Positions 5,698 through 30,978 of a stretch of 64,000 bases of DNA are shown piece by piece. A program made the position numbers and the translations under genes. A model generated the notes under the pieces. The model was given only the letters and a program-made list of their open reading frames with translations. It ran no database searches and was not told the origin of the DNA. The DNA comes from Bacilli bacterium (GTDB taxonomy: Bacteria > Bacillota_I > Bacilli_A > RFN20 > CAG-826): NCBI GenBank assembly GCA_017447165.1, contig JAFSOD010000004.1, positions 179,267 to 243,266 of the forward strand, written 5' to 3'. Each line of letters begins with the position of its first letter. Position 1 is the first letter of the stretch.

Positions 5698-6254
5698 TAT
5701 TTGATTTTTCTTCCTTCTGAAAATGCTTGTCCAACTTTTTTACCCACAACATAATAGCCATGGTTAAAAGGATCATATGAAATGATTTGCATTTTTTCTA
5801 AATCAACTTTACCGTTTTCATCTAGATATTTATCATCCACTAAGAGTTGAACAATATTACCAATAATTCCATAGTCCTCTTTAAAACATTCAAGTGTACA
5901 CTCTAAAGAATAAGGTAAGTCATCTAAAATTGGCGCGTCCACTAATTCACTCTTATGAGCTTTCCAACCAGTTTTTTCAAACTTCTTTGGATCATTTTTA
6001 CTAGATACAACACCAACAAAATCCGCTGGAACCATATTGCTAACATTAGCCAAAGAAACAGTAAAGGCTTTTCTTTTTCTAATATTCTCAGTTGTGCGAT
6101 GAGAATCAGAAATATTAAGTTCGATTTGTTTTGTGTCAAATGCGCATCCCCAAGCCGCGTTCATTACATCGATAGAACCATCATCATTGTAGGTTGCTAT
6201 TAAAATTACAGGCATTGGGAATATTGCTGGGCAAATATTCATTTTCTTTTTCAT
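5697..6254 (-). CDS. flavin reductase-like FMN-binding (split-barrel) protein
   Basis: 185 aa. Family-typical pattern PMPVILIATYNDDGSIDVMNAAWG...AFTVSLAN. Its stop overlaps the start of the downstream kinase gene by 1 nt. Confidence 0.7.
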   Translation of the reverse strand: MKKKMNICPAIFPMPVILIATYNDDGSIDVMNAAWGCAFDTKQIELNISDSHRTTENIRKRKAFTVSLANVSNMVPADFVGVVSSKNDPKKFEKTGWKAHKSELVDAPILDDLPYSLECTLECFKEDYGIIGNIVQLLVDDKYLDENGKVDLEKMQIISYDPFNHGYYVVGKKVGQAFSEGRKIK

Positions 6255-20390: not shown

Positions 20391-21305
20391 CTATTTTTTT
20401 ACTTTTTTATTCTTTTTAGTATGCTTTTTAAATCCTTCTCCAAAGACAGCGTTTGTTTGGGTATAAGTCACAAAAGCTTTAGGATCTACAGAAGCAATAT
20501 AGCGTTTAATTTTTTCATATTGCATCTTATCAAACACCACTCTTAAAATGACTCTTTCTTCTCCCTTGTAGCCACCTTCAGCGCGTATGATTGTAGCGCC
20601 TCTTTCAAGCTCATCTTGAGCGTATCTAGAAATGTCTTCCCACTTATCGGAAATAATATCAACTTGATAAGCAGTTTGATTCTTAATATAAACAATTTCA
20701 ATTAAAACAGCAGTGACAAAGCTAGATAAAATACCACATAATGCCGCAACCCAAAGCTGCATTGTAGCCATACCAACAACAATAACGAGTCCATCAATCA
20801 TAAATGAAGAAATTGATTCTTTAATACCTGCATATTTTGAAAGCAAAACTTGCACTACATCGACACCGCCTGTTGATCCTCCTCCAAGGAAAGTAATAGC
20901 GACACCACCACCAATGAAAACACCACCAAAAATACCACATAATATGAGGTTTCCTGCTGCTTGTTCACCGGCGAATGTAATTGCAAGTTCGTCGAAGAAA
21001 GCCACTCTTTTAAATAAGAATGTAAAGCCAATATATAAAGCAGAAGACAAAGCAGTTTTTAATGCAAAGTCTTTTCCAACAAATATTAAACCTAGTAACC
21101 AGAAGAATACTGTTAATCCTGCTACAAGATAATCGTAGATTTGTACATCGACAAAGTGCTGAATAATAATCGCAATACCACTAATTCCACCAGCAACAAG
21201 TTCGGCTTTGGTTAAGAAAATTACAGAGCCAAATGATAATAAGAATGTGCCAAGGATAACTGCAATATAATTTGATGTTTGTTTTAAGACTAATTTTTTA
21301 TCCAT
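20391..21305 (-). CDS. YitT-family membrane protein with C-terminal DUF2179 domain
   Basis: Gly-rich TM helices, then [22 protein letters not shown] prefer the start at MDKKLVLK (21305) because the track start would overlap prfB by 38 nt. Confidence 0.8.
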
Positions 21306-22402
21306 TTTTCTTTGCCTCCATTTGTAGATATGCATATAAGAAGTTATCGATGTTTCCGTTCATTACTCCTTCAACATCAACTTCTTCATAATTTGTTCTA
21401 TTATCTTTCACTAATGTATATGGACAGAAAACGTACGAGCGAATTTGACTACCCCATTCAATGTTTTTCTTTTCACCGACAATTGAGTTAAGTTCATTAT
21501 TTCTTTTTTCGACTTCTAATAAATACAATTTGCTTTTCAACATCGCCATCGCAGTTTCTTTATTAGATAATTGGCTTCTTTCAACTTGGCAAGACACTAC
21601 TATTCCTGTAGGTAAGTGGGTGATTCTCACTGCGGTTTCCACTTTGTTGACATTTTGTCCACCAGCGCCACCACTACGGTAAGTATCAATTTTTAAATCC
21701 GATTCACTAATTTCAATATTAATTGAGTCATTTTGAAATTCAGGAATAACATTCACACTAGCAAAGCTAGTATGTCTTCTTTTATTCGCATCAAAAGGAG
21801 AGATTCTTACTAATCTATGAACACCTTTTTCTCCTTTTAATAAACCATAAGCGTGTTTACCGGCAATCTTAATAGTGACACTTTTTAATCCTGCTTCTTC
21901 ACCAGGTTCATAAGAGATAAGTTGCATCTTAAATCGATGCGCTTCCGCATATAAAACGTACATGCGATATAACATGTCCGCCCAGTCTTGTGCTTCTGTA
22001 CCACCTGCGCCTGGATGAATTTCAATAATCGCGTTAAGATTATCAAACTCACCACTAAATAAACGGTCTACTTCGAATTCATTAACTTCTTTTTTTAAAT
22101 CTTCAAAGGACTCGGAAATGGATTCAAGCAAAGATTCATCTCCTAAATCTAAAAGTTCCACTAAGTCAGTATAAGTGGAGGAAATAGATTTATAGGAATC
22201 ATAAGTTGATCGACTGGAATTGAGTCGATTAATAATCTCTAAAGCTTCGCTTCTTTTATTCCAGAAATCTGGAGATTCACTTTTTTCAGTTAATTCTTTA
22301 ATTTCAGTTTCTAATTTTGCGAGGTCAAAGAGAAGACCCGAGTTGACGGATTTTCTCGCCAACAGCACCAAGTTCCTGTCTTAAAGCAACAAGGTCTTTC
22401 AT
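21298..22402 (-). CDS. prfB: peptide chain release factor 2, requires programmed +1 frameshift
   Basis: Short frame-0 [28 protein letters not shown] ends at CTT TGA C (22330-22324). The +1 frame continues DLAKLE... through the SPF and GGQ motifs ([17 protein letters not shown]). Confidence 0.93.
22324..22330 (-). promoter_or_regulatory. RF2 autoregulatory +1 frameshift site CUU UGA C
   Basis: Canonical slippery CTT followed by an in-frame TGA then C, read on the minus strand. A G-rich stretch (ctcggg) lies a few nt upstream. Confidence 0.9.
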
Positions 22403-24858
22403 TATTCTTTCTTCTCCTCGACTTCAGCGTCGATGACGTCACCTTTATTTTCTTGAGGTGCTTCTTCTACTGGTTTCTTTTCAACTTTAACATTAACAAG
22501 ATTTAAAACAGCATCAACAGAGGCAATGTTTAAACATTCTCTAAACATTTTATAGCCTTCGTTAACATAGTCTTGAAGTGGGTTGACATTCGCGTAGCTT
22601 CTTAAGTGAATACCTTCTCTTAATCTCGCCATCGCATCAATATGTTTGGTCCAGTTTTGGTCAATGCATCTTAAGATAAAGTTTCTCTCAATGTTTTGAG
22701 CGAGGTCTTCTGGCCATTCTTTTCTTCTTTCAAGATAATAATCTTGAATTGCCTCACCTAAATCTGGTCCACATTCTTCGGGATAAGATTCATCAAAGGC
22801 GACAGCGTTTAAAGATCCTGCTGGTAAGAAACGAGGCTCAACTTCTTTTAAGAGGAGTTCACCACTAACCAAGTTAGAGTTAGACCCCACTGGAACGGCT
22901 TTTTGAGATAAGAATTCGCCTGTAGTCTTAAAGACTTCATCAATAATGTCTTGAATATTCTTGCCTTCAATAATACGGTCACGTTTGTCATAGACAATTT
23001 GTCTTTGTTTGGCTAAAACGTCATCATATTCAAGTAAAGATTTACGAGTGTCAAAGTTTTGTCCTTCGATTCTCTTTTGAGCGGAGGTAATAACTCCAGA
23101 TACCAGTCTTGCTTCAAGAGCTTCTTCTCCGAAGTTCTTTTCAATATAGTTACGCATATTATCCGCAGCGAAACGAATTAATAATTCGTCATCAAAGGAA
23201 ACATAGAATCTGGAGAATCCTGGATCACCTTGACGTCCACTACGACCACGTAATTGGTTATCAATACGTCTAGATTCATGTCTTTCAGTACCCAAAACAC
23301 ATAAACCTGAAAAGTTGTAATAGCCTTTCTTCTCAAGCTCCTTTTTCTTATCTTCTGGGACTGTGGATTCTAAGTTTCTGACTTCGTCAACAATTTTAAT
23401 ATCAGTACCACGACCTGCCATGTTAGTAGCAAGGGTGATAGAACCTTTTCTACCAGCATCTTTAATAATTTCCGCTTCACGAGCGTGGTTTTTAGCATTC
23501 AACATTTCGTGTTGTAAGCCAGCCGCAGTTAATAAAGCAGAGATTTCTTCGGAAGATTCAACTGAGACAGTACCAATTAAAATTGGTTGACCGATTTCAT
23601 GTCTCACTTTAACTTCTTCCACCAAGGCTCTTAATTTTGGTCCTTTATGTGCATAGATATAATCAAGTGCGTCCACACGAGCGATAGGTCTATTTGGTGG
23701 AACACAAACAACACGCATGTTGTAGATTTTTCTAAATTCTTCTTCTTCAGTTTTAGCGGTACCAGTCATACCTGCCATCTTCTTATATAGACGGAAGAAG
23801 TTTTGATATGTAATAGTGGCTAAAGTTGTGGTTTCTTGTTTGATTTCCACATTTTCTTTAGCTTGAACAGCTTGATGTAAACCATCACTCCATTCTCTTC
23901 CCGGAAGGACACGGCCAGTAAATTGGTCAATGATTTGCACTTGTCCTTCGGCATCGACTAAATAGTCGACATCTCTAAACATAATATAGTTCGCTCTTAA
24001 AGCGTTATGGATTCTATGGACTAAATCAGCGAATTCTGGATCATATAAATTTTTGATGCCAAACATTCTATCTGCTTTAGCGTTACCTTCATCAGTTAAG
24101 TTAACAGTCTTATCTTTAACGTCAACAACAAAGTCGACATCTTTCTTTAAGGCCTTAACAAATCTATCGGCAACTGTATATTGAGAGGCGCTGGCTCTAG
24201 CACCACCAGAAATAATAAGAGGGGTTCTAGATTCATCGATCAAGATGGAGTCAGCTTCGTCAACAATACAGAAATTGAGCCCTCTTAAAACTCTATTTTG
24301 CATAGAAGTCGCCATGTTATCTCTTAAGTAGTCGAAACCTAATTCAGAGTTTGTGGTATATGTGATATCACATAAATAAGCTTCTTTCTTTTCAGAAGTA
24401 GTCTTTGTTCTTAAGTTAACTCCAACAGTTAAACCTAAGAATCTATAAATTTGGCCCATCCAGTTCGCGTCACGTTCTGATAAGTATTCGTTAACAGTAA
24501 CAACGTGAACGCCATTACCAGCTAAGGCGTTTAAATAAACTGCCATAGTGGCTGTTAAGGTTTTACCTTCACCAGTTTTCATTTCCGCGACATCGCCAGA
24601 ATGTAAAACTAATGAACCAATAATTTGAACTTTGTATGGGAATTCCGCAAGTGTACGTCTAGCTGCTTCTCTAGCGACGGCAAATGCTTCGATTTTGATA
24701 TCGTCTAAAGTCTTTCCGTTAGCGAGTAACTCTTTAAAGTATGGAGTCTTCGCTCTTAATTCATCATCGCTTAGGGCTTTCATCGATTCTTCTAAGGCGA
24801 TAACCTTATCCGCAATCTTTGAATATTTTTTAAGCGCCATTTTGTCAAATAAGCCCAT
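22402..24858 (-). CDS. secA: preprotein translocase ATPase SecA
   Basis: 818 aa with DEAD-like motor motifs MKTGEGKTL and VDEADSILIDE. Confidence 0.97.
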   Translation of the reverse strand: MGLFDKMALKKYSKIADKVIALEESMKALSDDELRAKTPYFKELLANGKTLDDIKIEAFAVAREAARRTLAEFPYKVQIIGSLVLHSGDVAEMKTGEGKTLTATMAVYLNALAGNGVHVVTVNEYLSERDANWMGQIYRFLGLTVGVNLRTKTTSEKKEAYLCDITYTTNSELGFDYLRDNMATSMQNRVLRGLNFCIVDEADSILIDESRTPLIISGGARASASQYTVADRFVKALKKDVDFVVDVKDKTVNLTDEGNAKADRMFGIKNLYDPEFADLVHRIHNALRANYIMFRDVDYLVDAEGQVQIIDQFTGRVLPGREWSDGLHQAVQAKENVEIKQETTTLATITYQNFFRLYKKMAGMTGTAKTEEEEFRKIYNMRVVCVPPNRPIARVDALDYIYAHKGPKLRALVEEVKVRHEIGQPILIGTVSVESSEEISALLTAAGLQHEMLNAKNHAREAEIIKDAGRKGSITLATNMAGRGTDIKIVDEVRNLESTVPEDKKKELEKKGYYNFSGLCVLGTERHESRRIDNQLRGRSGRQGDPGFSRFYVSFDDELLIRFAADNMRNYIEKNFGEEALEARLVSGVITSAQKRIEGQNFDTRKSLLEYDDVLAKQRQIVYDKRDRIIEGKNIQDIIDEVFKTTGEFLSQKAVPVGSNSNLVSGELLLKEVEPRFLPAGSLNAVAFDESYPEECGPDLGEAIQDYYLERRKEWPEDLAQNIERNFILRCIDQNWTKHIDAMARLREGIHLRSYANVNPLQDYVNEGYKMFRECLNIASVDAVLNLVNVKVEKKPVEEAPQENKGDVIDAEVEEKKE

Positions 24859-24956: not shown

Positions 24957-25583
24957 TTAATATTCTTCTTTCTTTTTCTTTTTGGTTTTCGCTATTACTA
25001 ATATTTCGATAGTTTTTGCTCCTTTGCTTCTTAATAAATCGATTGAAGTTAAAAGTGTGCTTCCTGTAGTCATAATGTCATCTACTAACAATATCTTTTT
25101 ACCCTTCATTGATATATTTTCATCTATTTCTAAAACATCATTTATCTTATGTCTTCCAAGTGAAGATTGATCAGACTGTTTATGCGCTGTTTTCTTCTTC
25201 AAAATGGGTAATTCTTTAAGCTTTAAACTCTCAAAAATCGCTTTTACGTGATTAAAACCACGCCGCTCATCATCAATGTGATAAGAAGGTATATAGACGA
25301 TATGATAACCATGATATTTTAACTTCAAAAAAGTTAGATATCGATCTAAGAAAACATCCTTTAATTCATAGTCATAACAACCTTTAAATTTATAGATTAA
25401 TTCCTTTATAAAATCTGTATATTCATAGACGGCTGTCCCTTTTATATTTCCTATTTCGAAAGACACAAATTTAGCCTGTAATTTACTAAAACAATCTCCA
25501 CATAAAATGTTCTTCCTTTTCAATAAGTTATATATGGAATTATCCGTTATTCTTTTAAAGCAAATTTTACAGAAATTATCCAT
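24957..25583 (-). CDS. comFC: ComFC/ComF-family protein (phosphoribosyltransferase-like)
   Basis: 208 aa. N-terminal Cys pairs CKIC...CGDC and PRTase motif ILLVDDIMTTGSTL. Overlaps the comFA stop by 8 nt. Confidence 0.85.
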   Translation of the reverse strand: MDNFCKICFKRITDNSIYNLLKRKNILCGDCFSKLQAKFVSFEIGNIKGTAVYEYTDFIKELIYKFKGCYDYELKDVFLDRYLTFLKLKYHGYHIVYIPSYHIDDERRGFNHVKAIFESLKLKELPILKKKTAHKQSDQSSLGRHKINDVLEIDENISMKGKKILLVDDIMTTGSTLLTSIDLLRSKGAKTIEILVIAKTKKKKKEEY

Positions 25584-26775
25584 TATCTAATGCCTCATTA
25601 TTCTTCTTTATTTCTTCTATAGATTCTTTAATATCGGAAGTCACTTTTTCGCATAGATAAATTACTTCTCCTTCTGGCGCATCAGCCTTTCTTCCCACTC
25701 GTCCTGCGATTTGAATTAAAGTGCCTTTTTCATATATTTTATGGTCAGTTTGACTGATAATTACCTGCAAATTCTTTACAGTTACCCCTCTTTCTAGTAC
25801 TGATGTAGTTACTAAATATGAAAATAAGTGATTACGAAATTCTTCGATTATTTCAGATCTATAATTCCTTTTAGAATGAACATAATTTCCACCTTTAACA
25901 AATAAGGAAATTACTCTATAGATTTTCTCACATAAATTAATGGTGGGAGCAAAAACAAATACAGGTTTGTTATTTTTCTTATATTCCTTTATTTTTCTAA
26001 TTAAATATAAGTATTGAAATAGCGTATTTCGTTTAACTATTTTGGGTATTGGAAGAGGATGACGATGAAAACGAACTTCTAATCTTAATATATCTTTGTT
26101 ATCTCCATGGAAATGATCTATTACTTCTTTAGATGGAGTGGCGGACATCATAACATAATGACCACACAAAGATTGATAGAACATGCTATGTAATGTTGGA
26201 TCATCTTTAAACGGAAAAGCGTCTATCTCATCTAGGATAATTAAAGAGAAATAATTCTTGTATCTATATAGTTGATGTGTGGTTAGGACAACTATATCGC
26301 CTTCTTTATCTTTTGTGTGCCCTCCATATAAGCAAACCACTTTGTTATATTTAAATATTTCTCTTAACCTATTATGTAATTCTATTGCAACATCTCTTCT
26401 AGGGAGCGCAAACGCGACCTTATCGCCACAATTAATTGCATATTTAATAATGTTGAGGCAAATTTCAGTCTTTCCTGATCCACATACAGCAAAAACAAGA
26501 CTATCTATTCCTTTCTTATAGTTCTCCACTAACTTATCGGATAATTCTTTCTGTTCTGGAGATAGCTCGTACTCTAAATGAATAGGTGCTTTCTTGGGAT
26601 AAGATGGCTTATGTTCTACTTCTTCACCACGAAAAGAGATACACCTACGACAATAGGGTTTGCCATTAAGATATCCAATTGAATGTATATCGGTGTTACC
26701 ACAAATAGGGCATTTATAAGTTTCTATGTTGCAACATCTCCTTTCTTTTGATTTAATATTTATACAACCTGTCAC
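25576..26775 (-). CDS. comFA: ComFA competence DNA-uptake helicase/translocase (only full-length copy)
   Basis: 399 aa. N-terminal 4-Cys motif CPICG...CRRC, Walker A AVCGSGKTE, DEID box, and the VTTSVLERGVT and QIAGRVGR helicase motifs. The start is uncertain: the track uses GTG 26775 inside a hairpin, and the position homologous to the ATG of fragment F2 is ATA (26727-26725). Confidence 0.85.
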   Translation of the reverse strand: MTGCINIKSKERRCCNIETYKCPICGNTDIHSIGYLNGKPYCRRCISFRGEEVEHKPSYPKKAPIHLEYELSPEQKELSDKLVENYKKGIDSLVFAVCGSGKTEICLNIIKYAINCGDKVAFALPRRDVAIELHNRLREIFKYNKVVCLYGGHTKDKEGDIVVLTTHQLYRYKNYFSLIILDEIDAFPFKDDPTLHSMFYQSLCGHYVMMSATPSKEVIDHFHGDNKDILRLEVRFHRHPLPIPKIVKRNTLFQYLYLIRKIKEYKKNNKPVFVFAPTINLCEKIYRVISLFVKGGNYVHSKRNYRSEIIEEFRNHLFSYLVTTSVLERGVTVKNLQVIISQTDHKIYEKGTLIQIAGRVGRKADAPEGEVIYLCEKVTSDIKESIEEIKKNNEALDNG

Positions 26776-26802
26776 GCAGAGCTAAATAGGCTCAGACAGG
26801 TT
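26766..26802 (-). other. 8-bp-stem hairpin between cassette ORF A1 and the comFA 5' UTR
   Basis: aacctgtc (26766-26773) pairs with gacaggtt (26795-26802). The loop holds a nested gagc/gctc pair. No U-run follows, so it is not a canonical terminator. Confidence 0.5.
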
Positions 26803-26803
26803 T

Positions 26804-27127
26804 TTATTTTAACTTAACAGGTTTTCTTCTTTTTATAATTCTTATTGTCAATCTATCATCAGGGTGTATTTTCATACCAATCAATTCTCTTGATCCAAAA
26901 TGCTTACGTTTACCCTGAACAGGTCTATTGTTCACAAACTAAGCCTTAACTTTATTTTCGGTAGGATGTTTTAGTTTTGTCTGATGTCTATGTTGAGATG
27001 TTCCTGTGATAACAGCAATATAAATGTTCTTTTTATCATTCTTTAAAACAATTAAACCAGGGTGTTTGTTTACTATATAAAATTTTCCTTTTTCTAAATG
27101 TTTGTTATAAATCTTTTTCTTACTCAT
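26804..27127 (-). pseudogene. cassette ORF A1 (small basic protein superfamily), interrupted by an in-frame TAG at 26939-26941
   Basis: The 62-aa ORF is MSKKKIYNKHLEKGKFYIVNKHPGLIVLKNDKKNIYIAVITGTS.... After the TAG, the same frame continues FVNNRPVQGKRKHFGSRELIGMKIHPDDRLTIRIIKRRKPVKLK, which aligns with the C-terminal half of A2. Confidence 0.7.
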
Positions 27128-27142
27128 ATTTCCTCCTTTCTG

Positions 27143-27424
27143 TTATGTATTTCGTGTTTTTGGGGATCCACATACGGCAAAAACTAAACTATCAATTCCT
27201 TTTTTATAATTCTCTACCAGCCTATCTGATAATTCTTTTTGCTCTGGAGACAACTCATATTCAAGATGAATAGGTGCTTTCTTTGGGTAAGATGGTTTAT
27301 GTTCTACTTCTTCGCCTCGAAAAGAGATGCATCTACGACAATAAGGTTTGCCGTTTAGATAGCCAATAGAATGAATATCAGTGTTGCCACAAACTGGACA
27401 AGTAAATGAAAGCTGGTTATCCAT
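27143..27424 (-). CDS. F1: open 93-aa comFA N-terminal fragment (Zn-ribbon region up to a disrupted Walker A, GSPKT)
   Basis: 77 of 79 aligned residues are identical to ComFA, yet 32 of those codons differ synonymously. It ends GSPKTRNT* inside the conserved linker, 15 nt before the ATG of A1. Confidence 0.8.
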   Translation of the reverse strand: MDNQLSFTCPVCGNTDIHSIGYLNGKPYCRRCISFRGEEVEHKPSYPKKAPIHLEYELSPEQKELSDRLVENYKKGIDSLVFAVCGSPKTRNT

Positions 27425-27821
27425 TTTTCTTGCCTTTCTTTTTATGTTTTGATTTAATACTGGTAGATGGTGTGCGCCCTTTCTGGGTTAAAGCTTCATT
27501 CGTTAGCTTTCCACCATTTTTTCTTTGCTCTTTAATTAGTGAAACATATACATCTATTTTTATTTCATCGGAAACTACTAAACGATACTTTTTAAGTTCT
27601 TGTCCTCTATGTCGGAGTTTATCTTTTCTTATATACTTTCTGAAATAAGATTTCTTGTCTGAATTGGGATTTGGATTTACATCAAATTCTTCATAATTTC
27701 CAGTTACAGTTGGACTATCAGTTATTTCGATATTTTCCCATGTTCCATCTTCTAGAACACTGATTTCTATTGATGGGTGGTATTTAGTTCTTTTGTTTTT
27801 AAATATTTTATATTTATTCAT
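27417..27821 (-). CDS. cassette ORF B1, 134-aa basic protein of unknown function
   Basis: MNKYKIFKNKRTKYHPSIEISV...ITDSP...VNPNPNSDKKSYFRKYIRKD...RGQ. Homologous to B2. Its Lys-rich tail is encoded by what is comFA 5' UTR in other copies, and its stop overlaps the F1 start (ATGGATAA). Confidence 0.7.
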   Translation of the reverse strand: MNKYKIFKNKRTKYHPSIEISVLEDGTWENIEITDSPTVTGNYEEFDVNPNPNSDKKSYFRKYIRKDKLRHRGQELKKYRLVVSDEIKIDVYVSLIKEQRKNGGKLTNEALTQKGRTPSTSIKSKHKKKGKKNG

Positions 27822-27840
27822 GTATCAATTCCTTTCTATG

Positions 27841-28113
27841 TTATGGATTTGTTGTTTTTGGTGATCCACATACGGCAAAAACAAGACTATCTAAGCCTTT
27901 TTTGTAATTCTCAACTAACTTATCCGATAGTACTTTTTGCTCTGGAAACAGTTCGTACTCTAAATGAATAGGCGCCTTTTTAGGGTATGATGTTTTGTGT
28001 TCCACTTCTTCACCTTTAAAAGAGATACACCTACGGCAATAAAGTTTGCCGTTCAACATACCAATTGAATGAATATCAGTGTTACCACATACAGGACATT
28101 TATAAGGTTCCAT
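27841..28113 (-). CDS. F2: open 90-aa comFA N-terminal fragment (GSPKT end), the only copy with ATG at the conserved start position
   Basis: MEPYKCPVCGNTDIHSIGMLNGKLYCRRC...AVCGSPKTTNP*. Eight amino-acid differences from ComFA over the shared region. Confidence 0.75.
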   Translation of the reverse strand: MEPYKCPVCGNTDIHSIGMLNGKLYCRRCISFKGEEVEHKTSYPKKAPIHLEYELFPEQKVLSDKLVENYKKGLDSLVFAVCGSPKTTNP

Positions 28114-28148
28114 ATTGAATTATCACCTTTCTTTTGATTTAAAATAGC

Positions 28149-28219
28149 CATAGTCGTGGTCATCACTAGTTTGATGCCGGCCCACAGGAAGCTGTGTAGC
28201 TCCATTAACGGGGCTTTTT
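28149..28219 (-). repeat. E1: ~70-nt structured element, copy 1
   Basis: Aligns base for base with 28981-29050. It contains two 5-bp hairpins: catca/tgatg, and cacag/ctgtg at 28183-28196. Confidence 0.7.
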
Positions 28220-28305
28220 ATTTTTACGGTTTTATAATATTTGCCATATATTGGGCATTTATAAGTTTCTATATTGCGTTACCTCCTTAATTTTGTTTTA
28301 ATATT
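28202..28305 (-). pseudogene. deletion remnant: comFA 5' UTR plus 7 codons fused to the last ~14 codons of an A-type cassette ORF
   Basis: Minus strand reads aaggaggtaacgcaat ATA GAA ACT TAT AAA TGC CCA ATA TAT GGC AAA TAT TAT AAA. The comFA start (IETYKCPI) runs into the A2-like tail (PIYG.YYK...), with the junction at about 28246-28256. Confidence 0.65.
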
Positions 28306-28360
28306 TGTAGTTAGTGCTATCGGTTAATCCGACCAAAGCCCAAGTTTAGTAGGTTTTACA

Positions 28361-28657
28361 CTAACTTTTTTTGTTGTTTAAATAGTTTTCAATTTCAATT
28401 AAATCATCTTCTGATAGGTTGAATTTTTCCAAAAGTTGACCTCTTGTTTTAATTGGATCCTTTCTTAAATACTTTCTAACATATGCTTTATCATTTCTTT
28501 TTGGATTCGGATTTACTTTAAGCTCAATATATCTGTTCTTCTTAGTGGGGCTTGAAGTTACTTCTAAATTAATCCAAATAGTTCCGTTTGAATCTACTTC
28601 TATGCTTGGATGATTTTTTGTTTTTCTGTTTTTATAGAATTTGAATTTTTTGCTCAT
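28361..28657 (-). CDS. cassette ORF B2, ~98-aa basic protein of unknown function
   Basis: MSKKFKFYKNRKTKNHPSIEVDS...VTSSP...VNPNPKRNDKAYVRKYLRKD...RGQ. I prefer the ATG at 28657 (SD aaaggagg) over the track start at 28687. Confidence 0.7.
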   Translation of the reverse strand: MSKKFKFYKNRKTKNHPSIEVDSNGTIWINLEVTSSPTKKNRYIELKVNPNPKRNDKAYVRKYLRKDPIKTRGQLLEKFNLSEDDLIEIENYLNNKKS

Positions 28658-28696
28658 TTGACACCTCCTTTTTGTTATGGTTTTCAAGTCTTTGGT

Positions 28697-28945
28697 GATC
28701 CTTATATCGCATAAACTAAATTATCTATCCCTTTCTTATAGTTCTCCACTAACTTATCCGATAGTTCTTTCTGCTCAGGGGGACAACTCATACGATAAGT
28801 GAATTGGGGCCTTACGATATGAAGGCTTATGTTCCACTGCTTAACCCTTAAAATAGATACATCTTCGGGAGTAATGTTTGCCGTTTAGGTATCCTATTGA
28901 ATGAATACCAATGTTTCCACAAACTGGGCATTTATATGTTTCGAT
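28697..28945 (-). pseudogene. F3: decayed comFA 5' fragment
   Basis: Reads IETYKCPVCGNIGIHSIGYLNGKHYSRRCIYFKG* with GAA->TAA, loss of one Zn-ligand Cys (C->S), and a later 1-nt insertion (tccccctga). Confidence 0.8.
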
Positions 28946-28980
28946 ATTGCATCATCTCCTTAAATTTGATTTAATAATGT

Positions 28981-29050
28981 CATGGTCGTGGTCATCACAA
29001 GTTTGATGCCGACTCGTAGGTAACTACGCAGCTCCATTAACGGGGCTTTT
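28981..29050 (-). repeat. E2: ~70-nt structured element, copy 2 (overlaps the stop of A2)
   Basis: Same architecture as E1. The hairpin cgtag/ctacg at 29015-29028 carries two compensatory base-pair changes relative to E1. Confidence 0.7.
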
Positions 29051-29441
29051 TTATTTTTTTGCGTTTTTTATAATAAGAACCGTAAATAGGATTACCTTTT
29101 TGTACTTTAATAATTAAATACATATCTTGGATGCTAAACGACATATCTGGATATTCTTTTTCTCCGTAATCATTTCTATCTCCTATAAAAGGTCTTTTCT
29201 TTATTAGCGATATTTCAACGTTACTATCGGTTGCATGTTTTAATTTGTAATATCCTTTTCTTAAACCTAGACGATCAAATTCTTCTTTGGTCATTGATCC
29301 AGTGATAATTGCATAGAAAGCTTTATCTTCATTATCAATTTTAAAAATTTGTCCAGGATGTCCACCTGGGCTACCATCTAAAACACGATAAAACTTGCCG
29401 ATTTCAAGTGTTATCTTGTGTTTTCTTTTCTTTTTACTCAT
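29037..29441 (-). CDS. cassette ORF A2, 134-aa basic protein of unknown function
   Basis: MSKKKRKHKITLEIGKFYRVLDGSPGGHPGQIFKIDNEDKAFYAIITGS...KKRPFIGDRNDYG...IQDMYLIIKV...KKRKKIKKPR. SD aaaggagg before the ATG. Confidence 0.7.
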   Translation of the reverse strand: MSKKKRKHKITLEIGKFYRVLDGSPGGHPGQIFKIDNEDKAFYAIITGSMTKEEFDRLGLRKGYYKLKHATDSNVEISLIKKRPFIGDRNDYGEKEYPDMSFSIQDMYLIIKVQKGNPIYGSYYKKRKKIKKPR

Positions 29442-29480
29442 ATTTTCCTCCTTTCTTGTTATGTTTTTAGTATCTTTAGC

Positions 29481-29603
29481 GATTCACATACCGCAAAAAT
29501 AATCTATCAATTCCCTTCTTATAGTTCTCCACTAACTTATCTGATAGTTCTTTCTGCTCTGGAGACAGTTCATATGAAAGATGAATAGGTGCTTTCTTAG
29601 AAT
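29481..29603 (-). pseudogene. F4: 5'-truncated, frameshifted comFA fragment (codons ~45-88)
   Basis: Reads KKAPIHLSYELSPEQKELSDKLVENYKKGID, then is frameshifted. At about 29603 its 5' end is fused to the truncated U5 ORF. Confidence 0.75.
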
Positions 29604-29727
29604 ATGAATGTTACTCTATGAAAAACGAAAACATTTCCTTCTTCATCAACGATATTTGCTGGGTGGTTGTTTTTTAAATAAATTCTGAAGTGCCTCCTGA
29701 AAGAACTATTTTTTGTTTTTGTTTCAT
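29604..29727 (-). pseudogene. U5: frameshifted and truncated remnant of a fifth cassette ORF
   Basis: ATG at 29727 after the conserved linker (aaatacataacataaaggag). Reads MKQKQKIVLSGGTSEFI*, then in another frame KNNHPANIVDEEGNVFVFHRVT, which matches the family HP-x-I core. Confidence 0.55.
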
Positions 29728-29892
29728 TTTTTCTCCTTTATGTTATGTATTTATTTCTTGTAGATCAGGGCGGCCTTTATTTTTTTATAGGTTTTCTCCT
29801 TTTATAATTGATAAAAAACTCCCTACATTATATATAGAGTGGCTTTCTTCATTTTTTTGTGAAAAAAAGTTTAATAAATCTTTATAGGTATT

Positions 29893-29914
29893 AAAAAAAG
29901 GCCTATAGGCCTTT
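29893..29914 (-). terminator. rho-independent terminator of rpiB (upstream boundary of the cassette array)
   Basis: Minus strand reads aaaggcctataggcc followed by ttttttt. Confidence 0.7.
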
Positions 29915-29935
29915 ATGTATTAAATATTTTTTAGA

Positions 29936-30373
29936 TTATTTTTCTAAGTCGTTAATCATCTCAACACGAGTTAAGTGTCTACCACCTTCAAATTCAGTGT
30001 TAAGGAAGATATCCACTCTTCTAAGAACATCTTCTAAAGCCATAAATTTTTGACCAAAGGAGATAACGTTTGCGTCATTATGTTGTCTCATTAATCTAGC
30101 AACTTCATCGTTATAGGCAATACCGCATCTAACGCCTTTGATTTTATTAGCCGCAATAGAGATACCCTCTCCACTAGTGCAGACAACAACACCAAATTGA
30201 CATTTTTTAGAAGCTACTTTTCTAGCTACTTCAGCGCCATATAAAGGATAATGGCAACTATCTAAAGAATAAGTACCAACATCAATTACTTCATGTCCTA
30301 ATTCTTTTAAATGTTCTGCGATCGCGTTTTTATATTCTAATCCGCCATGATCACTACCAACTGCAATTTTCAT
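29936..30373 (-). CDS. rpiB: ribose-5-phosphate isomerase B
   Basis: 145 aa starting MKIAVGSDHGG, with CTSGEGISIAANK. Typical RpiB/LacAB. Confidence 0.9.
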   Translation of the reverse strand: MKIAVGSDHGGLEYKNAIAEHLKELGHEVIDVGTYSLDSCHYPLYGAEVARKVASKKCQFGVVVCTSGEGISIAANKIKGVRCGIAYNDEVARLMRQHNDANVISFGQKFMALEDVLRRVDIFLNTEFEGGRHLTRVEMINDLEK

Positions 30374-30384
30374 ATTGATACCTC

Positions 30385-30978
30385 CTATAAGACTTTCTCA
30401 ATATTTTTTAAAGATATAGGTCCCTCTCTAACAATTTTAACTTGTTCTCCAGTAAGGTCAACTATTGTTGAAGGAACTCCACCTAAAGCAAATCCTTCAA
30501 GTATATAACCTAGTTCATCATTAAATATCTCTTTTACTTCATACGAAGTAAGCGCAGGTTTACATCCACTTTTATTTGCGGAAGGAACTAATAAAGGAGA
30601 ACCCACAAATTGAATTAAGTCTTGAACTAGTTTAATATCAGGAACTCTAATTCCAATTACACCTGTATCATGAGTGACATAAGTAGGAACGTTACCTCTA
30701 CTTTTAAGTAAAACAGTAATTGCTCCAGGCATAAAAGCTTTAATAACTTTTAACTCTCTTTCAGACACATATGCATACTCTTGGATATCATCAACTGAAC
30801 CTAACATTAAAGTATAAGGTTTATCTTCTGGACGTCCTTTAATTTCGTTTAAAAGTTTGTAGGCAGTAAAGTCGTTATAATAAACTCCTAAGCCCATAAC
30901 TGTTTCAGTAGGAAAAGCGATGACTTTAGATTCATCAAGAGCCTTTTTAGCGAGTTCAAATTCCTTAGTTGAGTGCAT
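30385..30978 (-). CDS. tsaC: L-threonylcarbamoyladenylate synthase (TsaC/YwlC type)
   Basis: 197 aa with FPTETVMGLG and SANKSG motifs of the Sua5/YciO/YrdC family. Confidence 0.85.
   Translation of the reverse strand: MHSTKEFELAKKALDESKVIAFPTETVMGLGVYYNDFTAYKLLNEIKGRPEDKPYTLMLGSVDDIQEYAYVSERELKVIKAFMPGAITVLLKSRGNVPTYVTHDTGVIGIRVPDIKLVQDLIQFVGSPLLVPSANKSGCKPALTSYEVKEIFNDELGYILEGFALGGVPSTIVDLTGEQVKIVREGPISLKNIEKVL

Follow-up and report, generated by a model that had tools for sequence, protein, structure and literature searches.

Organization of the array

We examined a 64,000-nucleotide (nt) stretch of the genome of a Bacilli bacterium (GenBank assembly GCA_017447165.1, contig JAFSOD010000004.1, positions 179,267 to 243,266), hereafter called the window, and all positions below are counted from its first nucleotide. 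On the minus strand it carries a comFA gene whose product consists of an N-terminal four-cysteine zinc-ribbon segment and a DEAD/ResIII and Helicase_C core. The helicase core, the CPxC...CRxC zinc motif in the N-terminus and the presence of comFC (Pribosyltran domain, 24957-25583) directly 3' of the gene identify the product as ComFA; secA and prfB follow. Codons ~1-90 of comFA (segment N) recur four more times between comFA and rpiB, as fragments F1 to F4, and a preliminary description made from the sequence alone had noted that F1 differs from the live gene almost only at synonymous sites. The analysis reported here indicates that F1 is probably a displaced or imported comFA 5' allele of ~90 codons, formerly functional, which lies in an array of small mobile cassettes.

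At least five cassettes make up the array at 26476-29765. Each comprises a junction (J), one small cargo gene, a connector and one copy of N. The last N copy continues in frame into the helicase core, so comFA remains intact. In the direction of transcription the order is rpiB with its terminator, a J-like remnant with a truncated open reading frame (ORF) of type B3, F4, J, cargo A, connector i, F3, J, cargo B2, connector ii, an N stub joined to an A-type tail, connector i, F2, J, cargo B, F1, J, cargo A2, connector iii, and live N with the core. The stub at 28241-28309 is the leftover of at least a sixth cassette, lost by a microhomology deletion. The J-like remnant (GAAATAAATACATAACATAAAGGAG) is found 5' of the truncated B3-type cargo. 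Coordinates of all features are collected in Table 1.

Divergence of the N copies at the codon level

Live N (26476-26712), F1 (27164-27400) and F2 (27862-28098), all on the minus strand, were aligned codon by codon with software, without gaps, from CP(I/V)CG to AVCGS. Within a span (26478-27424) correctly bounded by the end of the live 5' segment and the F1 start codon, the preliminary description had counted by hand 32 synonymous and two replacement codon changes in 79 codons between live N and F1. The software re-count returned exactly these numbers, the replacements being I/V and K/R. The 38 nt differences are distributed over codon positions 1, 2 and 3 as 5, 1 and 32. Formal estimation of dN/dS, which had been proposed as a check and was made here by the Nei-Gojobori method (NG86), gave 50.7 synonymous (S) and 186.3 nonsynonymous (N) sites, proportions of synonymous and nonsynonymous differences (pS and pN) of 0.671 and 0.021, dS of 1.69, dN of 0.022 and a dN/dS ratio (ω) of 0.013, which is not near 1. 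In a binomial test against ω=1, only four of the 38 differences are nonsynonymous, where 78.6% would be expected (p=4.9e-19). F2 differs from live N by 28 synonymous and 8 replacement codons (ω 0.055) and from F1 by 30 and 8 (ω 0.048), and the same test gave p ~1e-12 for the F2 pairs. The earlier suggestion that F2 is less constrained, made from its 8 replacements, is consistent with these figures and with four F2 residues that are absent from every live copy.

We found no gene-conversion tracts between the copies. The longest identical runs are 18-20 nt, so gene conversion fails to explain the pattern. The three N copies of the window are no closer to one another than to copies elsewhere, and 15 copies in other genomes resemble the live copy more closely than F1 does; the outcome that had been named as evidence to the contrary, that the fragments would cluster as recent in-genome duplicates with conversion tracts, did not hold. 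F1 is not a duplicate decaying in place.

Between live N segments of different species, the median divergence is 30 synonymous and six replacement codons. For the live N of the window, the synonymous and replacement counts are 34/0 against locus L038, 36/1 against L036 and 31/1 against L029. The 32/2 of F1 falls within this live-live range, and F1 is therefore indistinguishable from the live allele of another genome. From this likeness and from the lack of clustering among the window copies, we concluded that F1, F2 and the live 5' end diverged inside functional genes and were joined secondarily. The N copies as a whole form a star-like pool in which nearly all pairs share 78-86% nt identity. 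In ten other arrays, the N copies of the same array are 76-86% identical to each other in nucleotide and 85-92% in amino acid (aa) sequence.

Survey of related loci

A total of 106 related loci were collected, and all related sequences are metagenome assemblies or metagenome-assembled genomes (MAGs). In every one of these loci, the small ORFs are located between rpiB and comFA. Dozens of independent ENA, JGI and NCBI assemblies share the architecture, on contigs of up to 433 kb. For the survey we used 58 species-representative loci of rumen Bacilli relatives with both flanks. At least one cargo gene is present in 29 of the 58 and at least one extra N in 13; six cargo hits were found in one locus. 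The gap between rpiB and comFA in the remaining 29 loci is 40-350 nt, with one exception of 2.1 kb.

The 79-aa N is 90-100% identical to that of the window in 25 species. In these species SecA is 68-98%, the rest of ComFA 46-87% and ComFC 39-81% identical to the window proteins. A break in the live comFA, which the preliminary description had proposed to look for, is present at the Walker A motif: in the alignment, ComFA identity falls sharply right after GSGKTE. Among the species with window-type N, N identity is not correlated with SecA identity (Spearman rho -0.24, p 0.25); the corresponding rho values are 0.975 for the ComFA core and 0.91 for ComFC. At SecA identities of 76-87%, the median N identity is 95% for loci with window-type N vs. 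58% for loci with other N types. Locus L057 carries two N types in one array, a window-type fragment standing ahead of a different live N type. The 5' segment has a history separate from that of the rest of comFA and from that of the host.

Two explanations had been offered for the synonymous-only divergence of F1. The first, divergence within functional comFA genes of different lineages followed by horizontal exchange of cassettes, is strongly supported by the decoupling of N from SecA, the break at Walker A, the F1-like differences between pairs of live copies and the inter-species transfer of cargo genes described below. The second, expression of F1 under purifying selection, is taken up in the next section.

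Ten loci (L060, L062, L064, L066-L069, L071, L072 and L081) have a Bacilli-type comFA-comFC-secA arrangement with a ComFA N 55-67% identical to that of the window, on contigs titled Gemmiger, Prevotella, Alistipes, Bacteroides, Faecalibacterium etc. These are probably mis-binned or mislabelled MAG contigs.

Decay of the N fragments

As a measure of decay, deviations were counted at 68 columns conserved to 90% or more across 29 live N copies. Full-length fragments from 12 arrays showed on average 3.08 deviations vs. 0.93 in live copies (Mann-Whitney p=2e-4), and their defects include two lost zinc-ligand cysteines (C9Y and C26S), two stop codons and one frameshift. Many other fragments are truncated. 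The pN value rises from 0.056 between live copies to 0.069 between fragments and live copies and 0.080 between fragments. As a class the fragments are not functional, and the second explanation is not supported at the class level: the fragments decay. F1 itself has one deviation (K65R), as live copies do, so F1 is simply young; selection acting on F1 alone could still contribute. F2 has two conserved-column deviations in addition to its four residues never found in a live copy, and F3 and F4 are wrecks.

Cargo genes

The cargo genes of the window encode small basic proteins. Searches of the cargo ORFs against Pfam, PHROG, NCBIfam and PADLOC models gave no match, nor did PDB profile searches with the cargo, including one with the B profile at E<=10. 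Structure prediction assigns cargo B, B2 and B3 the SH3-like barrel of MazF/Kid/CcdB, and we regard them as predicted members of the MazF/CcdB superfamily by fold. At the sequence level they fail membership in PemK/CcdB, and 43 remote homologues carry no PemK annotation. Family B comprises only 93 clusters (50% identity) in a set of 1.84 billion proteins and has no annotated relatives. For cargo A the structure model is poor and the MazF-like hits are weak; homology between A and B was negative by BLAST and hhalign, with motif resemblance only. In A2, the cargo nearest the live comFA, a single TAG replaces a serine of the homologues; the older cargo genes B, B2 and A are intact.

Homologues occur only in metagenomes and in MAGs labelled Bacilli or Erysipelotrichaceae, mostly from rumen. 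A phage origin of the cargo was considered and rejected, since 2.9 million viral contigs contained no relative of A or B.

Two other kinds of gene occupy this slot in related genomes. Family D (113 aa; range 103-123 aa, 'FRYNKKRKHYSYIF...') has no match in any library. Cargo Y, absent from the window, is a 330-aa YhcG/DUF1016 PD-(D/E)xK protein with J ahead of its gene; it matches the PADLOC candidate defence gene PDC-S02 (E=1.5e-113) and Pfam YhcG_C (5.5e-52) and DUF1016_N (6.1e-38). With either small ORFs or YhcG behind a common J, the slot accepts defence-type cargo of different sizes. We infer that the cargo genes encode toxin or defence effectors, possibly under antisense RNA control.

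The cargo genes have moved recently between distant species, as comparison with the host genes shows. The B gene of the window differs from those of L102, L079 and L077 by pS of 0.07-0.11 and pN of 0.009-0.019; in the same host pairs secA has pS of 0.58-0.60 and pN of 0.14, the comFA core has pS of 0.70-0.75, and the SecA proteins of these hosts are 77-79% identical. B2 shows pS of 0.10-0.22 against species with 78-86% SecA identity, and its copies are 96-100% identical in distant species. Cargo A is more diverged between close hosts (pS 0.72-0.78) than secA (0.43-0.49). When the B element was aligned from four hosts, near-identity extended from J to ...TTTACTTGCCCAATATGTGG/...TGCCCAATATGTGG, the CPICG codons of the next N, and outside these bounds each of the four hosts has its own specific sequence.

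Junctions and connectors

The live gene has, at its Walker A codons, the sequence ...TGTGGATCA GGAAAGAC-TGAAAT (GS GKTEI). All fragments end at these codons and read ...TGTGGATC(A/C) CCAAA(A/G)ACACGAAAT(A/C)CATAA, followed by the Shine-Dalgarno sequence AAAGGAGG and the ATG of the next cargo. J is a mutated copy of the Walker A codons with GG>CC and a 1-nt insertion; it closes the ORF of the fragment and provides the ribosome-binding site for the cargo that follows. It is alike ahead of all cargo families and in many species, and may be the scar of one ancestral event that has been copied with every cassette since.

Three unrelated types of connector were found, each of which ends, antisense to comFA, in a hairpin and U-run at the stop codon of the cargo. 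On the plus strand, the hairpin of connector iii lies at ~26766-26802 and is followed by the U-run (fold -15.7 kcal/mol; hairpin and U-run together 26766-26812), resembling an intrinsic terminator, and the hairpin/U-run region of connector ii lies at ~28309-28372. Between cargo B and F1, the overlapping stop and start codons stand in for a terminator-bearing connector. The nucleotide sequence of connector i is conserved across species, with equivalents in L001-L056, and contains a candidate small RNA (sRNA) on the plus strand in both window copies (28136-28225 and 28960-29057). Alifold energies are -23.5 for the antisense vs. -12.5 for the sense strand; helix 2 contains three compensatory pairs, and G.U pairs of the connector would be C-A mismatches on the sense strand. 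Connector i is a candidate for an antisense sRNA of ~90-110 nt over the Shine-Dalgarno sequence and start of comFA. It has no Rfam match, and none was found in the whole region 25000-30500 at E<=1. A promoter scan returned fewer consensus matches than in shuffled sequences and is uninformative.

Origin of the array and alternative explanations

We propose that rumen Bacilli exchange cassettes and N alleles horizontally. These alleles would be an old pool, shaped by strong purifying selection while they served as working gene starts, and any two of them would therefore differ by ~30 synonymous and few replacement changes, whether they are taken from two species or from one array. F1 would have had almost no time to decay after losing its helicase core. 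RecA-type recombination between N copies, homologous or homeologous, may add, exchange and remove cassettes; it would be anchored, especially between distant species, at the conserved CPxCGN and AVCGSGKT codons of the zinc knuckle and Walker A. Recombination would most likely follow natural transformation; the hosts carry comFA and comFC. If a donor fragment is built as N(3' part)-J-cargo-N(5' part), both its ends match the single N of the recipient, and integration would duplicate N. In pneumococcus, transformation yields tandem duplications (merodiploids) by alternative pairing of repeats (PMC3784515). Locus L079 has a structure of this kind: the fragment 5' of B is of the host's own N type, and the live N starts with ~25 element-derived codons and continues with host sequence 93-100% identical to the fragment, which makes it a fresh duplication of the host N around a B insert. 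The motif TATGTGG occurs at both ends of N (at PICG and AVCG), and the 12-codon fragment of L102 looks like the product of a deletion between two copies of it. The decay order F1<F2<F3<F4 in the window suggests insertion next to the live gene, and L033 and L039 also fit the newest cassette lying beside it.

Several alternatives were weighed against this proposal. One is that F1 and F2 are in-genome tandem duplicates that diverged in place and were perhaps patched by conversion, or, as a variant, that they are an artefact of assembly. The copies are direct tandem repeats and L079 presents an in-situ duplication of its own N; the reading is nevertheless hardly credible, having been refuted by the re-count, the rejection of neutral divergence (p=5e-19) and the live-live comparison, with no conversion tracts and no clustering of the window copies, and the repetition of the architecture in independent ENA, JGI and NCBI assemblies speaks against an artefact. 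Another is that F1 and F2 are expressed zinc-ribbon peptides under selection, serving as antitoxins for the MazF-fold cargo or as modulators of ComFA/ComFC. The zinc-binding N-domain of MqsA, which binds MqsR, is a model for such an antitoxin. F1 and F2 are intact ORFs with a Shine-Dalgarno site or translational coupling, their ω values are 0.013-0.055, ten of the 12 full-length fragments of other arrays have no stop codon, an N copy follows every cargo and no other antitoxin gene was seen. Metagenomes also contain >100 clusters of fragment ORFs of ~90-117 aa, a count of called ORFs that is biased towards intact fragments. Against these points stand the excess deviations of the fragments (3.1 vs. 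0.93), among them the lost zinc ligands, the stepwise rise of pN, the many truncations, the intact cargo A that sits between the dead F4 and F3, and cargo genes without any fragment in L007 and L017 or with a mere 12-codon stub in L102. Cargo B moreover accompanies N types that share no more than 53-59% identity with that of the window, and the idea that N is conserved as a cognate antitoxin was weakened on the same ground. We consider selected peptides rather unlikely.

Site-specific or homing insertion at the TGTGG core or at the Walker A coding sequence, by an enzyme encoded elsewhere or by the cargo and without general homologous recombination, is likewise improbable. Inteins and homing endonucleases use ultra-conserved targets of the Walker A kind. 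All cargo families and species have the same J, TATGTGG lies at both N ends and the element boundaries fall on it, and integrase-bearing prophages are known to target comFA (PMC4774983). However, no integrase, transposase or nuclease gene was found in any cassette or within ±13 kb, and the small cargo has an RNase-toxin-like predicted fold, not that of a DNA endonuclease. The crossovers vary (the switch is at about N codon 25 in L079 and at the end of the B ORF in the window), the N copies are mosaic, the deletions use assorted microhomologies, and J can be explained as a single ancestral scar copied along.

Some observations weigh against the proposal of circulating cassettes and N alleles. 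Only two observations exclude vertical descent under very strong constraint, namely the patchy distribution and the missing correlation with host distance. The mean pS of N is 0.65 vs. ~0.80 expected at saturation in simulations from codon usage, and with synonymous sites so near saturation dS cannot date the transfer of N. A near-identical donor allele of F1 or F2 was not found: the best match among 41 N copies is 86% identical in nucleotides, and the best in 5.8 billion proteins is 91-93% in amino acids, identifying no donor lineage. Pooled over arrays, there is no polar gradient with rank, the position counted from the live gene; at ranks 1, 2 and >=3 the intact/degraded counts are 26/13, 14/4 and 3/5 for cargo genes and 7/13, 3/1 and 0/3 for fragments, and polarity is therefore claimed only as a pattern of the window. 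The folds of A and A2 are not established. For the MazF-fold cargo no separate antitoxin ORF was found, the only constant neighbour being the comFA 5' segment.

A joint reading of these elements is possible, and we offer it with considerable doubt. The comFA 5' segment might be the attachment repeat of integrase-free cassettes loaded by transformation: DNA imported by ComFA would recombine at the zinc-knuckle and Walker A codons, stack MazF-fold toxin or defence genes and regenerate comFA. N would stay near-invariant (at SecA identities of 68-98%) through a second job as antitoxin or partner of the cargo and/or as template for an antisense promoter, and the sRNAs of the connectors would control the cargo or comFA.

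Comparison with known systems

Functionally the array resembles the orphan arrays of Rhs, CdiA-CT/CdiI and MafB and the tandem islands at tRNA genes, and outwardly it resembles integrons, yet it fails defining features of each. As in the Rhs, CdiA-CT/CdiI and MafB arrays, successive acquisitions enter by recombination at a conserved motif in the coding sequence of a resident gene, the displaced unit is kept adjacent with a piece of the conserved gene and decays with age, and no dedicated recombinase is needed. In those arrays, the repeated piece belongs to the toxin gene and growth occurs at the 3' end; here the repeat is the 5' end of a housekeeping competence helicase whose protein sequence barely varies, and the cargo is separate, with one gene per unit.

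Integrase-bearing prophages insert into comFA and disrupt it (PMC4774983; PMC12378983). Comparable to comFA prophages and tRNA/tmRNA islands are the displaced target-gene ends in tandem and the restoration of the gene by the incoming element; unlike them, the present elements are 0.4-1.3 kb, lack an integrase, carry one gene per cassette (small or cargo Y), have no relatives in the viral contigs searched, and duplicate ~250 bp of coding sequence rather than an att core. Like integron cassettes, they are mostly single-gene and promoter-poor, share one orientation and a recurring separator, are enriched in toxin/defence genes and occur across species. In contrast to integrons there is no IntI, attI or attC, the neighbours within ±13 kb are housekeeping genes, and the separator is a comFA coding segment with a 20-nt scar.

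The cargo differs from MazF/PemK, CcdB and ToxN/CptN/AbiQ in having no Pfam, PDB or PADLOC match, no upstream antitoxin gene and no RNA repeats. Tandem repeats of the type III antitoxin kind (ToxIN/CptIN) were not found by TRF in 26400-30000. The context of the cargo is also fixed, always just 5' of the comFA 5' segment. The merodiploids of pneumococcus (PMC3784515) share with L079 the tandem duplication that results when donor ends pair with the same or repeated recipient sequence; those were obtained experimentally with kb-scale repeats, and here the process would act on ~250-bp homeologous repeats in uncultured bacteria. As in core-genome defence hotspots, the rpiB-comFA slot holds differing accessory genes, including PDC-S02/YhcG, but its boundary lies inside a gene and every gain duplicates the 5' end of that gene. 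Our literature search turned up neither small cassettes that lack an integrase and rebuild comFA nor MazF-like genes linked to comFA.

The proposed process gives a concrete and testable explanation for fragments that are dead and yet appear selected. About half of the sampled species of this rumen Bacilli clade carry the undescribed array inside the gene for a DNA-uptake motor. Mobile elements and natural transformation are in conflict, and the array adds a case in which the element leaves the competence gene functional rather than disrupting it. At least two new families of small proteins, one of them with a predicted MazF-like fold, move between hosts with SecA identity of only 77%. The N copies, with a nearly frozen protein sequence and nearly saturated synonymous sites, provide a natural case useful for studying recombination barriers between repeats, and the array may offer a route to integrase-free, homology-guided stacking of cassettes.

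Coordinates, start codon and neighboring genes

Table 1. Features of the comFA cassette array in the window, with cargo genes found in the same slot of related loci.
Feature	Position	Strand	Remarks
Live comFA	25576..26727	(-)	Pfam DEAD 4.8e-18, ResIII 6.7e-15, Helicase_C 1e-12
Live N (repeated 5' segment)	26476..26727	(-)	84 codons, IETYKCP...AVCGS; ends at Walker A codons GS|GKT
Connector type iii	26728..26803	(-)	Between cargo A2 and live N
Cargo A2, pseudogene	26804..27127	(-)	In-frame TAG at 26936-26938; 47% identical to intact 107-aa A2 of L009/L023
Junction J after F1	27128..27163	(-)	CCAAAAACACGAAATACATAA, then Shine-Dalgarno AGAAAGGAGG
F1, intact 93-codon ORF	27143..27424	(-)	N homology 27164-27415; start overlaps stop of cargo B
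Cargo B, 134 aa	27417..27821	(-)	Predicted MazF/CcdB-superfamily fold
F2, intact 90-codon ORF	27841..28113	(-)	N homology 27862-28113; J next, ~27822-27861
Connector type i, first copy	28114-28240	(-)	Plus-strand terminator 28198-28215
Deletion remnant	~28241-28309	(-)	First ~10 N codons joined to 3' tail of A-type cargo; reads ...NIETYKCPIYGKYYKTVKIK
Connector type ii	28310-28360	(-)	Antisense-facing hairpin and U-run
Cargo B2, 98-108 aa	28361..28687	(-)	48% identical to B
F3, decayed N copy	28696..28945	(-)	Stops, frameshift; J ~28673-28695
Connector type i, second copy	28946..29036	(-)	Plus-strand terminator 29030-29047, overlapping 3' end of cargo A
Cargo A, 134 aa	29037..29441	(-)	Conserved family, fold not established
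J and F4	29442..29607	(-)	F4 is a partial, frameshifted N, codons ~42-84
Truncated, frameshifted B3-type cargo	29609..29765	(-)	87% identical over 32 aa to intact B3 of L024
rpiB intrinsic terminator	29897..29914	(-)	Upstream limit of the array; rpiB 29936-30373
Family D, related loci	L034 4631-4972; L039 4538-4909; L087 2154-2465		Remnant in L001, ~5858-5965
Cargo Y, related loci	L031 4853-5845; L036 5016-6008; L050 514-1578; L052 5010-6002; others		

The start codon of comFA is probably the ATA at 26725-26727 on the minus strand. ORF calling extends the gene to a GTG at 26775, which has no Shine-Dalgarno site. Among live N copies of the 'YKCP' type, 17 of 20 (from different species, L020-L050) have ATA where others have ATG, with AAGGAG 8-10 nt 5' of that ATA and, in most copies, an in-frame stop immediately before it. 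An ATG at this position is commoner in the N fragments (5 of 11).

The genes within ±13 kb are housekeeping genes, including secA, prfB, uvrB, tsaC, prmC, prfA, dnaX and others. The ORF of prfB (release factor 2; 21298-22442, minus strand) starts at an internal TTG, and a short upstream ORF that lies in a different frame overlaps it, a layout as expected for the usual programmed +1 frameshift.

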